A stretch of 32,000 bases of DNA from Candidatus Saccharimonadota bacterium (lineage in GTDB: Bacteria > Patescibacteriota > Gracilibacteria > BD1-5 > UBA6164). Both the position numbers and the translations under genes were made by a program. Where the stretch lies: contig CP042461.1 of NCBI GenBank assembly GCA_004563595.2, positions 120,001 through 152,000 on the forward strand. The letters run 5' to 3'. The notes under the pieces are model-generated. The model saw only the letters and a program-made list of their open reading frames with translations, made no database searches and was not told the DNA's origin. Below are positions 20,778 through 27,110 of this stretch, in pieces; the first letter of the stretch is position 1, and every line of letters starts with the position of its first letter.

Positions 20778-23700
20778 ATGGTTCAGAAATATATAGCACG
20801 TGTAGTATTATTTTTTATTTTATTCACTCAATCTCAAGCATGAGTACTGTATGTGAACGCAGCAGAATCTTTAGAATGAGAAAGGAATCAAGCAGTTTCT
20901 ACGCTTGATGCAGTTGATAGTGTTCTTGATACAGCTATCACAAAAATTGATAAAAAATTAAAAAGTAAAAAAACAAAGCAAAGACTAGGAAAGAAACAAG
21001 TGGAAATAAAAGAATATTTAGAAGAAGTGAAGAAGGAAATAAAGAAAACAAAGAGTAAAAAAGAAATAAAATTATTGACCCAAAAAGCAAAGAAAAAACT
21101 TGTTTTAAAAGTAGTTTCATGAGTTTCAAACTATAAAAATATAGAAGAGTGAATTGATAAAAAACTCAAGACTAAACAAAAGAAAAAAGCTCTGAAAGCT
21201 TTACAAAAATCTTTGAAAAACAAAGGTTCATATAACTTGATTATTAAGACAAAGCTTTCAAAAAAGAATTTTCTAAAGAAATATAAAACTTTTGATAGCG
21301 CTTTAGATTTAAAGCTTCTATATAAAAAAGGAAAAAATAAATATTTTGAGCTCTCTATTTCAGAAGATTCAATTTTAAGAGAAGAGCTTTTGGATGGTAT
21401 TGAATCCGGAGAATTTCCAGAAAGCTTTTTATGAGTAGATGTCATAAAACCAGAGATATTTTCTATTCAAGAAATTTCTCTCGAGTGAGAAGATATTTCA
21501 CAAACTTGGTGAGTAGAAAAATATAATTTATTCCGTCAGTTTGAAACAGTATCTCTCTGAGAAAAAATACAGGTATGAATTATTGATACATGAATTGATT
21601 ATAACCATACGGACTTAAAAGATAATGTTGTATCATGATATGATTTTATCAATGATGATAATGATGCATTTGATGATCAATGACATGGGACTCATGTAGC
21701 TGGTACTGTATGAGCCAGTATAAATGGAGAAGGAATTATCTGAATGAATCCATATGTAGAACTGGTACCACTTAAAATATGTGATAGTGATGGATTTTGT
21801 CCAAGTTATGCAATTACAAGAGCAGTTTCATATGCAATGGAGCAAAATATTGATGTGATCAATATGAGTCTATGAGGGAGATGAAACCCAAATGACAGTG
21901 TGATTTGTGATGCTATTCAATTCTATACACAAAACTGAGGTGTTGCCATCGTTGCAGCATGAAATAGTAATATTGATACTTCAGAATTTGTTCCGGGAGG
22001 TTGTTTAGAGTCTATTACAGTTGCTGCTGTTGATAGCTCATTACAAAGAGCTTCATTTTCTAACTACGGTTCAGATGTAGATATTGCTGCTCCATGAGTA
22101 GGGATTTATTCGACATATCCAGGAAATCTCTATAGGTCAATGAATGGGACGAGTATGGCTGCTCCTCATATCGCAGGTTTAGTATCTGTTATGAAATCAT
22201 TGAAACCAGAGTTAGGAAAAGATGAAATAAAACAATTACTGAAAATAAATAGTACGAATATCTCAACAGATCAGCTAGTTGCTTGATTTGTAGATACAGT
22301 TCAACTATTGAGTTCTCTTGATGCTGTTACTATTGATGAAAGTACAGATGTAGTGGTAGGAGAAGGGACGGAGGTTGTGAGTATAGATCCAGTTGGGAGT
22401 ACAAGCCCAGAAGATATATCTATACTTGAAAGTGTAGCCAATATTGATTTTTCAGAGGAATATGAAGAAATACCAACTCCAAGTTACCTCTCACTTGATG
22501 GTATTTTACAAACAGAAGTTCAAAGTACGGAAGAAGATTTTATTCCTGTTCCAGAGATAATTTACAATAAAAATCCTGAAATAAAAATGGATTTTCCATT
22601 ACAAATAAATAGTTTAGAAGTCGATAATGAAGTATCTCCGTTAGACCAAGTTATTGATATCACTGGTTTTGAAATCTCTCAAACGCAAGAGGATAATAGT
22701 TGATATCCTTATAAAGAATGAGAAAATCAAATATTAAAAATAGAAGAAGTGATTGATGAGTGACCATCTCAAGAAGTAATTAATACTTGAATGTTTACAT
22801 CAATTCCTGAATTGGAAAAAGGGGAAAATATAGAAATAAATTCTACGAATAATGAGCGTATATCATTTGAAGAAAAGATTGAAAAATGAACCCTTGATGA
22901 AATTATTAAAAGTAACTCTGGAGCTATTCCTCAAACAGTAGAAATAGAAATTTGAGATATTTGAAAGGGAGATATACAAAATAAACGAGAGTGAAAAAAA
23001 GCTCCTTATCACAGAGTGAAAAAATCACTAAAAGAGCCGATTTTTGATATGTGAGAAATGGTTTTACCAGATGAAGGGAGTGGTTCTGGAATTACTAATG
23101 AAGATAATTGAGTATCTATTCAAAGATCATATAGTTGTAGTATTTTTAAATGACAACAATGTAAGTTAACTATAAATGATGCGGGTCGTCATAGTATTGA
23201 GCCAATATGAGACTCAGTAGCATCTGTGTTTACGAAACGGGATTATGTATATTTTACTTGAATAAAACCAGGTACAACAACATATAACTTTATTCGTTAT
23301 GGATCAATTTTCAATACAGTTACTGTAACAGTAAAAGATATTCCTGAACCTATTGATCTATATTGTACTGTAAAATCAGGAGGTACCTGTAATTTTTCAC
23401 TTCCAGAAGCCATATCATATGCTCCATCTGCGATAAATTCTGAGTATACAATAGATTATGAATTTAGGTATAATTTTCTTACCGTTGATACACGATCAGT
23501 ATGAAAAACAAGCTTTACTGTAAATACCTGAAACATCCACTTAGCAACTATTCATTTGGATATTACTCCGAATGTTCCTGAGTATGAGTGTACTATAATA
23601 GAGTGATGATTATGTAAAGTGAACGTGAGATATGCATATGCATTACAATTTATAGAAACAGTATGAGGACTTACAAATATCAATGTAAACAATGAAGATG

Positions 23701-26700
23701 TATATATAACATGACTTAAATGATGAGAAGAATATATATATTTTATGTGACCTGGGTATAAGGATTACCGTGCTGGAATAAAAGTAAAAGTTATAGCGGT
23801 ATCAGATATTGAGTTACAGACAACAAACTGTAAATTATGGGAAGTATGAAATGAATGTGTTGTTTCCCTTATTTCTGCAAATAAGTTTACATATACAACG
23901 TCAACTGGATGAATTGTAAATGTGAGTGCTGATTCTGGGAAAATATATATTTCGTCACAAGCTGTATGAGAAACAGATGTATATGTAAAATATAATGGGA
24001 GTCTTGTATGAGTTATAAATATATTAGTACAAACAAACGCAAGAGCCTATAATTGTCGTACGAATCTATGAAGGGAATGTAGCTTTTATTTACCAAAGGG
24101 TGCTCGGCAGTATACCTATACTGTTTCTACTCCATGAATCGTAGATTTAGAGCTTTGATGACCAGAATTAAGAACATTCTATGTGAGACCACAAAAAGCA
24201 TGATCAGTTGTAATATATGCAAAGCACCAATGAGGTTACGTTGCTCAAATATATGCAACATTTACAGAGATTAAGGAATATAATTGTGATATAGAAGAAT
24301 GAAGTTATTGTTCTCTGTTAGGGCTTCCTGAATATTATGACTATGAAGTAATAAAAGATGATATAAGAACTTGAAGATTTAGAATAGATAGTAAAAACTA
24401 TTGAGATCCAAAATATCTTGAAGTAGCCATATGACCAGATACAGTGACATGAATAAGGTCGTGAACAGTTGACCTCTATATTGATAGAGCAGCAGCACTC
24501 TGAATTCATACACTTGCAATAATGCATGTAAATATTACAGAGCAATCTTATCAAAAGCAATCATTTTGTGAGACAAAAGTGAATGGAAGATGTGATATAG
24601 GACTCAGAAATATATGAACAGATAAGTATAGTATTATGGTATCTAAACCAGGAATGCTCAGAATAGAAGCCAAAAGGGATTACATGGTAATGTTTGCCGA
24701 ACAAGAATGAGAAGTAGAGGTTATTATTAAAAATAATGAGACATGACTCATAGCTCATAAAGGAACAGTGACAATAGAAGGAGAATACATTATTACAGTC
24801 CCAAGAATAGCAACAACTCTTTCAGAAAAGACTTTTAATTTGTCTGTATGAGAGAGTGCTGAGTTAGAAATAATAAATGGGAATACAAATAATAAATATA
24901 CGGTTATAAAAAGATATCCAAATATATCAGTATCGTATGTGTGAACTAATAAGTATAACATAACAGTATTGAATGGAAACTATACAAACAATACGATTCA
25001 ACTCATAGATACAGATAAAGAATATGAAAATGCTACAGTAAATATCATAATAGAAACGGCAGACACATGATGAGGTTGAGATACAGGCTGAGGAACATGA
25101 GATCTTCCTCTGAGTTTCAAAAACCTTTCGTATGAACCAGTAACAGAGTTATGAATTTGAATCATGAACTTTGATATTACATGAAGTCCAACAGAGGTAT
25201 GAATCCAATATCTTACTTCGGATAATTCTATTGCCAGACAACAATTAGAAATCAATCCAGATGGAATATATTCATTGGTAATAGACAAGAATGATACTTT
25301 AGACTCAGGAGCAGCATATGAGAATTTTATGCCATATTATGTAGATGCTGAGAATACTAGTTATTATTATGCTGATGATAATTATTTATCGTTTGGGAGT
25401 GAAGCATGAAAATGAGAAGTTATTTGAGTATGAGTGCAGGAAAGTAACTGAGTAAAAATTAATGCTGATAATGCTGAAATTATTTTTGAGAGATTTAAGG
25501 TTAAGATAGACAAGATAGTAGAAGTACTGAAAGCAGATGAATCTAAACAAGGGAATATACCAGTGGTACTTGAGAAGATAGTGGTGTTGAAAGAAAAGCA
25601 TAGTTCTAATACTCTTGTTATTCAGATATTGGAGTATTTGGAGAGTGGGTTGAAGGGGGTGATAGGAATAGTCGATTGACCAGAATGAGAGGTAGATGAA
25701 TTTATAAAATCACTTTTAGAAGATACTGGAATAAGTATTACTGTTACATGATTAAATATAAATGTACTTGATACTTATAGATGTAAACTTAATAATAGCT
25801 CAAAAGAATATTACAAACCAGAACATGCACAATGTGTTACAGAACAATACAATGCATGGAAATGTAATACATGATACACAGAGGTATGATGATATAGTTG
25901 TGTAAATGAGGAGTATTACTGAGTAAGAAGTGCAAAACTTGAAAAAATAAATATTTTTCAGGAAACAATAGATACTAGTATTACAAAAATATCAATGAGT
26001 TTATCATCTAAAAGCATTTTAGAGAAGTATGATATTACCAGTAAATTAATCGCAAAAATTATATGAATTCAAAAACAGGTTGATACACAATATAGTTCAA
26101 GTAAAGAAAAAGTATGATTAATAAATGACATACTTGACTATTATGTATGAAAATTAGATATACTATTTTTAGCATATGAAGTTGAATTAAATAAATACAA
26201 AGCAAGTTTAGAAACAGCATTGTTAAAATGACAATATGAACAAGCTCAAGCAGAAACAGAGAGTCAAACATCAAAATGAAACTTAGATTGATATGAGCAA
26301 TCAGTTACTGATTTCTTAGAAGAGTTTACAGAATTACTTAGTTTAGCAGAATTTTGAGAACTCTTGTTGTGAATAAAGAATTTTGTATATAATCTAGATG
26401 AGGAACTAGAAAATATAGCAGTGCAATTATGAGAACTCTATGAACTTTACCAAAACAGAGAAGAAATCTTTGCATGACTTGATGATTATAAAAAGGCTTA
26501 CTATACGAGTTATTTAGAAACGACTGTTTGGCTTGCTGCTATACCTATAAAGCTTGGGAAATTTAGTAAGGTGAAGAAGTGAGGGGATAGTAGTACATTA
26601 GCTGAAATTAAAGAAATTAAGAAGAAACAGGATGAAGAGAGTACACAATCAGGAACTCCTGTGACTGTGCTGAATGCTTGAGCAAAAGTTGAGGGGAGAA

Positions 26701-27110
26701 TTGATCATGTAATGGATTTTGAACTTAAGTCAGACTGAACATACAAATGACTCCATTCGTTAAATGAGTTGGATGTTTCTCAGTATGTGAGAGATGTAGA
26801 TACAAATAAATTCCCAAATACTGTAAATGCACCATATGAAGCAAAGGTTTCTATTAAAGATTGAAATGGATGAATTATTGAGAAGTGAAATAATGGATGA
26901 ATTTCTTCTATATTCCCAGATGGTTGGAGTAGAGAAAAAATTATTGAGGAAGTAACACATGCAATAGAGAATAATAAAGGGAAAGATACCTCTCCATTAG
27001 CAGGTAGTAATGAGTATATTGGTTTTTCAAAAGATAATACAATACAAATCAATTTTTATCTTGGAAGTGATGACTCTATTATTTCATATTTTCCAAAAAT
27101 TAATAATTAA
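20778..27110 (+). CDS. giant secreted polymorphic-toxin-like protein (2110 aa): signal peptide, Lys-rich coiled coil, S8 subtilase, acidic linker, 7 Cys-pair Ig-like modules, Big_2-like domain, Gly linker, helical pre-toxin region, C-terminal EndoU-like RNase
   Basis: A single ORF under table 25 (6330 nt between ATG and TAA, divisible by 3; read codon by codon with no TAA/TAG). N-terminus MVQKYIARVVLFFILFTQSQA. S8 triad: VGIIDTGID (Asp codon 21585-21587), QGHGTHVAGTV (His 21684-21686), NGTSMAAPHIAG (Ser 22152-22154). C-terminus: GRIDHVMDF..YKGLHS...YEAKVSI...SSIFPDGWSREKIIEEVTHAI...IQINFYLGSDDSIISYFP, which matches my recollection of the bacterial EndoU toxin family. Confidence 0.85.

Follow-up and report, generated by a model that had tools for sequence, protein, structure and literature searches.

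Sec-dependent polymorphic toxins were surveyed by Zhang, de Souza, Anantharaman, Iyer and Aravind (2012; PMC3482391), who tabulated subtilisin among the proteases found in them (Table 1). In Firmicutes and Actinobacteria, S8-linked polymorphic toxin systems and antibacterial proteins (S8-PTS/ABP) have been described by Li, Tan and Zhang (2022; PMC9424270), Colautti et al. (2025; PMC12582261) and Mwangi et al. (2026; PMC13556192). Many of their toxin tips are BECR-fold ribonucleases (RNases), and protease cleavage activates the diffusible toxin. Here we analyzed a 32,000-nt stretch of DNA (hereafter the window) from a bacterium of the Gracilibacteria lineage, positions 120,001 to 152,000 of contig CP042461.1 (GenBank assembly GCA_004563595.2), and focused on the gene at window positions 20778-27110 (+). 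This gene comprises 2110 codons plus stop under genetic code table 25, with 103 TGA codons read as glycine (Gly). Its product is probably a polymorphic antibacterial toxin exported via Sec, and the following open reading frame (ORF) probably encodes the immunity protein. The protein has an intact S8 triad, an immunoglobulin (Ig)-like stalk, a conserved junction with exchangeable tips and an EndoU-family tip, and a tip-linked small ORF follows it.

The protein follows the template of PMC3482391 in its predicted signal peptide, N-terminal peptidase, long repeat stalk, pre-toxin domain and variable C-terminal toxin, with an adjacent immunity gene and, in its relatives, orphan cassettes; Tox-EndoU is among the toxin families of that survey. 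It differs in its stalk, where Cys-pair Ig-like modules take the place of RHS or filamentous-haemagglutinin (FHA) repeats, and in a junction and an immunity protein that match no Pfam or NCBIfam family. The available sections of the survey name S8 only with Ntox32, and we found no pairing of S8 with EndoU listed in them; neither Gracilibacteria nor code 25 was encountered there. The initial annotation had called the architecture unusual, which proved overstated: subtilisin-containing toxins are known (PMC3482391), and toxins activated in trans by S8 proteases have been characterised (PMC9424270, PMC12582261, PMC13556192). Because subtilisin inside Sec-dependent toxins was tabulated in 2012 (PMC3482391), the S8 fusion is not new in kind.

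Like the S8-PTS/ABP systems, the locus combines a toxin predicted to be Sec-exported with swappable nuclease tips, a dedicated S8 protease and an adjacent immunity gene. In those systems, however, a small toxin is exported together with a protease encoded separately, whereas here protease and toxin are parts of one 2110-aa polypeptide with a long stalk between them. S8-PTS/ABP toxins also carry an N-terminal BetaH, for which the layout here leaves no obvious equivalent (the libraries scanned showed no BetaH model). Membership of S8-PTS as defined, by a separate protease gene plus BetaH, was rejected because the S8 domain is fused within the ORF, and no second S8 gene was found in the flanking 10 kb. 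The locus resembles CdiA-CT(STECO31)/CdiI (5HKQ; Michalska et al. 2018, as summarised in PMC9086364) in that an EndoU-family tip ends a giant protein and a small cognate immunity protein (here a candidate) accompanies it; the predicted model of the tip shares the His-His-Lys triad and the order of helices and strands with 5HKQ. CdiA of diderms, in contrast, has CdiB two-partner export and a VENN pre-toxin motif, neither of which is present here, the immunity proteins are unrelated, and neither sequence searches nor Foldseek detected similarity between the tip and 5HKQ. In the protein and its neighbours, Pfam scans found no two-partner secretion domain, CdiB, FHA repeats or VENN. Assignments to CdiA and type V secretion, to type VI secretion and Rhs, and to type VII secretion and LXG were rejected because the defining domains are absent.

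Translated with table 25, the interval is a single 6.33-kb frame with no TAA or TAG, as first annotated; under table 11 it splits into fragments, the longest of 131 aa. With TAA plus TAG expected at ~6% per codon at 29.5% guanine-plus-cytosine (GC) content, a 2110-codon open frame would arise by chance with a probability of ~e^-133. The ORF is identical to NCBI QFR38741.1 (Candidatus Gracilibacteria bacterium 28_42_T64), which is labelled only "S8 family serine peptidase", and has exact DNA matches in JGI 3300030037 (493-kb contig) and in the Logan assembly SRR3580189. Because an identical ORF occurs in two independent assemblies and in the NCBI record, a frameshift or assembly artefact is unlikely, and on this identity across three records we rejected a chance ORF or artefact. 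The closed genome was reported by Sieber et al. (2019; PMC6851277), whose paper mentions large extracellular proteins with 'hostile' annotations, not this gene. TGA makes up 31-100% of the Gly codons in nearly every gene of the window, the exceptions being pyrC and pyrD. Seven TGA-Gly codons fall in the C-terminal 175 aa of the toxin (aa 1936-2110), six of them (aa 1987-2041) inside the Pfam EndoU match. At 7 of 17 Gly codons, TGA usage in the EndoU segment is near the rate elsewhere in the toxin gene and about typical of the genome, which argues that the segment is not a recent import from a standard-code genome. The contrast with pyrC and pyrD drawn in the initial annotation also held, since 0 of their 42 Gly codons are TGA.

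The polymorphic nature of the protein became apparent when its C-terminal region was compared with those of its relatives. An exhaustive HMMER search with aa 1501-2110 against 1.84 billion representatives gave 122 matches, and at least 13 of these proteins share the segment aa 1841-1950 (26298-26627, +), followed by differing tips. This helical pre-toxin junction domain has the consensus ...ELYE[IL]YxNxxEIxxGLxxYKKxYYxxYLxTxxxLxxIPxKLxKxxKxKGxGDSKxxxExKxLKK, ends in the basic patch KLGKFSKVKKGGDSSTLAEIKEIKKK (26550-26627) and belongs to no family in Pfam or NCBIfam. In two of the relatives, P0125 and P0169, the 326 aa up to '...KGGDSKVMKEV' show 83% identity, and the sequences beyond this point are unrelated. 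At least four tip types follow the junction, one of them an EndoU resembling that of the window and another, in P0159, a second EndoU subtype (50.8 bits). A further tip has the colicin-E3 catalytic motif and scores 21.7 bits against Pfam Cytotoxic (cut-off 22), and the best PDB match of its five-sequence profile is colicin E3 1E44 (E 0.09); its assignment as colicin-E3-like is borderline. Another post-junction tip shows a weak RNase-A-like match (E 0.019), and further tips have no family match. C-terminal swapping at a conserved junction, as the initial annotation had anticipated, is thus seen in P0125 and P0169 and in the range of tip types. A shared N-terminal or central part and pre-toxin region carrying unrelated tips, as in these proteins and in the complete relative P0002, is the arrangement of polymorphic toxins, and the junction appears to be the recombination boundary. 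Its basic end is a candidate cleavage region.

A similar position is occupied by PT-TG (PF14449) in toxins of Gram-positive bacteria. P0002 has PT-TG (32 bits, cut-off 23.5) before its tip, a ~160-aa domain for which Pfam and NCBIfam scans found no family. In P0128, a PT-TG-like motif, identified by eye, precedes an EndoU tip, with the C-terminal half of the junction between them. Because PT-TG precedes the tip in P0002 and a PT-TG-like motif precedes the half-junction in P0128, the junction appears to play the role of PT-TG. Unlike those toxins, however, the window protein has no PT-TG match, and its junction is longer, helical, ~110 aa in length and provided with conserved motifs of its own.

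The tip itself (aa 1960-2110; 26655-27107, +) is predicted to be an EndoU_bacteria RNase toxin domain. It matched EndoU_bacteria (PF14436) over aa 1975-2106 (26700-27095), scoring 53.7 bits within the complete sequence and 58.3 bits when the domain was scanned alone, against a cut-off of 25.3, and the match spans 123 of 129 model positions (4/5-127). The same family was matched by 24 of the 32 closest relatives (the best 32 of the 122). Across 12-15 relatives, H1977, H1993, K2036, P2047, W2050, Y2080, S2084, S2103 and P2106 are invariant and S2043 nearly so. The EndoU signature is H, H, [SNT], [SNT] (PMC3482391), and the catalytic triad of the family is His-His-Lys (PMC9086364). Because H1977, H1993, K2036, S2084 and S2103 are invariant, the tip fits both. 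An AlphaFold2 (AF2) model of the tip, built from a 15-sequence alignment, reached a predicted local distance difference test (pLDDT) score of 85.1 and a predicted template modelling (TM) score of 0.82, and shows a helix, four strands, a helix and three strands, the order reported for 5HKQ (PMC9086364); the modelled sequence was a table-4 translation, in which seven Trp stand in for Gly. A single-sequence AlphaFold model (pLDDT 33) was discarded. Of the EndoU identity proposed in the initial annotation, the Pfam score above the gathering threshold and the conserved residues stand, while the structural recovery of XendoU (2C1W), Nsp15 and CdiA-CT (5HKQ) did not follow. By profile match and residues, we assign the tip to the EndoU_bacteria family as a predicted member.

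The candidate cognate immunity gene (27125-27490, +; 121 aa) starts 14 nt past the toxin stop. Its table-25 homologs lie directly after EndoU tips at L087 1814-2239 and 4291-4695, L088 4205-4627 and L089 8946-9284. They share 34-48% identity, with BLAST E values of 1e-15 to 3e-30 for the four ORFs compared, and the C-terminal motif MKDWRDY[IV][DE][AS]WEK[EK]TG; the ORF at L087 1814-2239 was placed in the family by alignment and a match to the family hidden Markov model (HMM). Altogether, the family follows EndoU tips directly in five cassettes and never follows other tips. The ORFs after non-EndoU tips (L003, L090 and L098 2325-2753) are unrelated to it, and P0002 is followed immediately by a 95-aa ORF unrelated to the 121-aa ORF of the window. 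The small ORF, proposed from the outset as the partner of the toxin, therefore co-occurs specifically with EndoU tips and is likely, on this pattern, to be the immunity gene. A 5.8-billion-cluster index held no relative of it besides its own records, and the family has no Pfam, NCBIfam or credible PDB relative, the only matches being spurious ones to designed helical repeats. Orphan tips and immunity cassettes, also typical of polymorphic toxins, occur in L087 and L098. L087 carries three tandem junction cassettes. In L098, the main toxin ends in a colicin-E3-like tip and is followed downstream by the C-terminal 75 aa of an EndoU domain, an immunity homolog and a second, orphan homolog. This EndoU remnant with its orphan immunity copies appears to be the footprint of a displaced tip.

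The protease in the N-terminal part of the protein is a Peptidase_S8 catalytic domain (PF00082; aa 261-494; 21558-22259, +), with 180.6 bits against a gathering score of 21.8. Its catalytic residues D270 (21585-21587), H303 (21684-21686) and S459 (22152-22154) and the oxyanion-hole residue N396 (21963-21965) are invariant in P0002, which is 51% identical over the first 520 aa; the complete Asp/His/Ser triad named in the initial annotation is therefore accompanied by N396. Residues 1-28 (20778-20861, +) form a predicted Sec signal peptide with K4/R8, the core VVLFFILF and a possible cleavage site after SQA or VNA, which is conserved in P0002. In Kyte-Doolittle windows of 19 residues, only aa 6-24 exceeds 1.6, which agrees with the N-terminal hydrophobic segment first noted, and no other membrane segment was found.

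Between the protease and the tip, the stalk extends over ~650 aa as eight Ig-like modules. Seven beta modules (aa 781-1339; 23118-24794, +), each with a C-x7-8-C pair at its start, begin at aa 787, 863, 938, 1018, 1093, 1170 and 1264 and are 75-94 aa long, matching the number first counted. An eighth module of the same type (aa 1340-1428; 24795-25061, +) lacks the Cys pair and aligns with the other seven. A profile of 20 modules from four proteins matched the Ig-like domains of the solved surface protein 7z47 (E 2.4e-5) and of the S-layer protein EA1 8opr (E 4.2e-5). Because of these matches at ~1e-5, the description as Ig-like is supported. The label Big_2 given to one module was not, since no Pfam match to Big_2 (PF02368) at E 1 or better was found across the 651-aa stalk.

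We propose that the protein would be exported via Sec and that the stalk would keep the tip at a distance from the cell. The cis S8 protease may then cut the polypeptide, by analogy either at its own base, releasing the protein, or at the basic end of the junction, freeing and activating the tip. Such self-cleavage would parallel the trans-acting S8 proteases of the ABP/S8-PTS systems, and a cut at the base of the stalk has been proposed for N-terminal ZU5 peptidases (PMC3482391). Activation of secreted toxins by S8 proteases has precedent (PMC12582261, PMC13556192), as do N-terminal processing peptidases in polymorphic toxins (PMC3482391). The RNase would enter a neighbouring bacterium, host or rival, and cleave tRNA or other RNA, so that translation stops, and the 121-aa protein would bind and neutralise the toxin in the producer cytoplasm.

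Several observations weigh against this interpretation. For the tip, Foldseek searches with the AF2 model (Trp-for-Gly version) returned no significant PDB structure (best E 0.088, TM score at most 0.31) and no match at E 0.001 or better in BFVD. Neither a tip profile nor a single-sequence search matched PDB sequences, and in an hhalign comparison with a verified Nsp15 EndoU domain the alignment was confined to the final 21 columns, at a probability of 11%; this local match covers the tip segment "IQINFYLG-SDDSIISYFPKIN". For the protease, Pfam scans found no S8 prodomain of the I9 or fervidolysin-NPro type, a prodomain being typical of secreted subtilases and not obligatory for the Peptidase_S8 family. 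The one ABP cleavage site that has been mapped is Gln-Ala, within a loop, rather than a basic patch (PMC12582261). No cell-wall anchor, receptor-binding or translocation domain was identified in the protein. The window holds no orphan cassettes, its junction, EndoU domain and candidate immunity gene each occurring once. The correlation of toxin and immunity identities is not significant (r 0.42, p 0.23, five pairs). Complete sequences are limited to the window protein and P0002, and the S8 fusion is seen in these two; all other relatives are fragments on contigs.

It is possible, if doubtful, that the protein is a toxin whose S8 domain is not its processor. The protease would instead be an independent second effector, acting on the S-layer, pili or wall proteins of the target, or part of an adhesive scaffold, and the tip would be released by target-cell factors or another protease. 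The S8 domain lies ~1450 residues from the junction, and neither a prodomain nor a cleavage motif was detected. The S8 unit also exists alone, because L086 carries the N-terminus of the family without a toxin: its 723-aa secreted S8 protease (6519-8690) ends in two other repeat domains, and its N-terminal region is 34% identical to the first 517 aa at 99% coverage. Peptidases in such proteins can moreover be processing enzymes, toxins or both (PMC3482391). Against this, the only characterised S8-linked toxins need cleavage by their cognate S8 protease for activity (PMC12582261, PMC13556192).

Whether the predicted toxin is aimed at the host bacterium, for predation or host control, rather than at rival strains of its own kind is a separate matter, and we consider an exclusive host target somewhat unlikely. 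[quoted passage not shown] The nearest EndoU tips on other scaffolds (fn3, extracellular contractile injection system, PT-HINT and others, without S8) share 37-44% identity. Because these have a normal Trp content, they appear to come from standard-code organisms, and since the nearest such tips are from standard-code bacteria, the EndoU enzyme is not lineage-restricted. Tip polymorphism, orphan immunity genes and cassette arrays, however, are the signature of conflict within a kind or among near kin (PMC3482391), and no host is known for the organism. Use against hosts and use against rivals are not mutually exclusive.

It is improbable that the protein is a feeding enzyme, a secreted protease-plus-RNase with which an auxotrophic epibiont digests host or detrital protein and RNA. 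The small ORF would then encode a barstar-like inhibitor guarding the producer before export. In barnase/barstar, too, the gene of an intracellular inhibitor adjoins that of a secreted RNase. The occurrence of the N-terminal S8 unit without a toxin in the 723-aa protein of L086 would fit this explanation, as would the inferred dependence of the organism on external peptides and its many proteases (PMC6851277). It gives no reason, however, for the exchange of rRNase-like and unrelated tips at a fixed junction, nor for truncated tips with orphan inhibitor genes or tandem cassettes, features that all mark conflict systems (PMC3482391); the genome is also reported to contain most genes for purine and pyrimidine synthesis (PMC6851277). 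Finally, it is highly unlikely that the C-terminal domain is not an EndoU-type RNase, being a similar sequence of different function or an inactive binding module: the lack of a significant structural match to solved EndoU and of a PDB profile match and the weak hhalign result with Nsp15 would agree with this, but the Pfam match covers 123 of 129 model positions at double the gathering score, the His/His/Lys and Ser residues are invariant, 24 of the 32 closest relatives (best 32 of 122) match EndoU_bacteria, and the domain occupies the toxin position beside a dedicated small ORF.

Taking a polymorphic toxin as the preferred interpretation, the gene represents a new design within an established class of bacterial weapons, which will not surprise polymorphic-toxin specialists. 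Novelty appears to lie in the lineage, in the use of a Cys-pair Ig-like stalk for such a toxin, in the junction domain and immunity family, and in the combination of S8 and EndoU in one polypeptide. In the literature searched, polymorphic toxins were not paired with Gracilibacteria, Absconditabacteria or other CPR bacteria, and comparative papers on CPR bacteria with ~1-Mb genomes did not mention toxins. More speculatively, the protein might be the first complete representative of a weapon family specific to TGA-recoded CPR bacteria (Gracilibacteria and relatives), single-polypeptide and self-activating, in which the cis S8 protease cuts at the junction and interchangeable RNase tips are launched from an Ig-like stalk, allowing epibionts to kill or subdue hosts or to exclude rivals. 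Very little is known of the ways in which Gracilibacteria and other CPR bacteria with ~1-Mb genomes interact with other cells, and none is known to have a characterised toxin. Here, a genome of 1.34 Mb (1,343,103 bp) devotes 6.3 kb to a toxin-like protein annotated only as an S8 peptidase, and standard-code gene calling hides giant genes of this sort. The locus supplies a concrete candidate effector-immunity pair and an EndoU immunity family that is new. Its new junction domain offers a means of searching recoded genomes for more toxins, and with its fusion in cis the protein is a natural counterpart of the protease-activated antibacterial proteins discovered recently.

A word-index search with aa 560-2110 returned only the toxin gene itself (P0001, recorded in table-4 translation, in which each TGA reads as Trp) and P0002. 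The latter (2318 aa, table 25) shares the N-terminal two-thirds with the window protein, with a predicted signal peptide, Lys-rich region, S8, acidic linker and Cys-pair modules all as here, and adds three F5/8-type-C domains. L084 and L085 encode S8, acidic repeats and stalk on contigs that end short of the C-terminus. Each S8-stalk or junction ORF for which DNA was examined contains 13-112 in-frame TGA, on contigs of 23-35% GC. S8 occurred in none of the best 32 of the 122 HMMER matches, and scans of GTDB genomes with Lys-rich or TGA-Gly-containing patterns returned only generic subtilases of at most 46% identity, a result with no bearing on absence. In metagenomes, a first pattern gave no match and a hand-built pattern 20 loci, of which only L098 was real.

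Some of these relatives show irregularities of their own. In L084, two in-frame TAA/TAG codons (4119-4121 and 4728-4730) interrupt the acidic repeat linker of the S8-stalk homolog and the frame continues on both sides; the homolog may be a pseudogene or comprise three separate genes, or the repeats may have been misassembled. In L098, the stalk ORF (1-1254) overlaps the helical-junction-toxin ORF (1232-2377) at 1232-1254 in a different frame, which suggests a frameshift or sequencing error within one original giant gene. L089 2230-12507 is a dense island of short toxin-like and immunity-like ORFs around a stand-alone 296-aa EndoU protein, including a PoNi_C (nuclease-immunity) domain protein, a 178-aa ORF with 'WHH' and a 619-aa protein with an N-terminal part that looks beta-helix-like by eye and a distinct C-terminus. 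In L088, F5/8-type-C-like fragments and another toxin-like C-terminus (269-1315 and 4741-5097) flank the EndoU cassette, and the locus appears to be a cassette array derived from a P0002-like giant gene.

The remaining regions of the window protein connect these parts. A Lys-rich, probably coiled-coil region (aa 29-150; 20862-21227, +) of net charge +21 is conserved in P0002, L084 and L085; its Lys-rich character agrees with the initial annotation, 51 K+R falling within the first 200 aa. The region before the protease (aa 151-260; 21228-21557, +) is conserved in five relatives and is possibly a prodomain by position; a profile of its conserved part (aa 151-235) found no match in the PDB and leaves that idea unsupported. 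The acidic linker (aa 501-780; 22278-23117, +), also described at the outset, has a net charge of -43 and contains degenerate '...EINS...' motifs, which form regular repeats in relatives. After the stalk comes the expected Gly-rich linker TGGGGDTGGGTG (aa 1430-1441; 25065-25100, +). It is followed by a beta-rich module (aa 1442-1560; 25101-25457, +) without a Pfam match, which by eye is common to P0002 ('G(S/N)PTEVGI(Q/E)Y'), and by a helical region (aa 1561-1840; 25458-26297, +) partly conserved in P0125 and P0169. The helical region contains a four-Cys segment (C1669, C1686, C1696 and C1708), possibly a small disulfide knot, and a sub-threshold EGF_MSP1_1 match at aa 1681-1709 (25818-25904; E ~1e-3).

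Directly after the candidate immunity gene lies a 337-aa ORF (27520-28533, +) of 20.5% GC with 13 of 13 Gly codons as TGA; its N-terminal half is coiled-coil, a hydrophobic segment lies near aa 200-240, and it belongs to no Pfam or NCBIfam family. Further downstream, a 104-aa ORF (29549-29863, +) matched MafI immunity (NCBIfam NF033691) at E 4.4e-4 and 20 bits, below the cut-off of 31, and is a possible orphan immunity gene of uncertain membership. The ORFs 28552-29007 and 29001-29567, with no family assigned, adjoin it, and the three may form a small orphan-immunity island. Upstream, the toxin gene is adjoined by a DUF559 (endonuclease-like) gene (20018-20443, +; Pfam 99.6 bits). In this AT-rich DNA, a promoter and terminator scan was uninformative, with 62 promoter-like sites against 69 expected. 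The pyrC gene (Amidohydro_1; 14012-15052, -) has a GC content of 0.355 and the pyrD gene (DHO_dh; 15065-16015, -) one of 0.341, with 0 of 21 Gly codons as TGA in each; the higher GC and the lack of TGA-Gly are consistent with recent acquisition from a standard-code organism. Elsewhere in the window, two adjacent ORFs (6239-7387, + and 7393-8292, +) have pilin-type N-termini ('...GAFTLIEILVGILII...') and are likely type IV pilin or pseudopilin genes.

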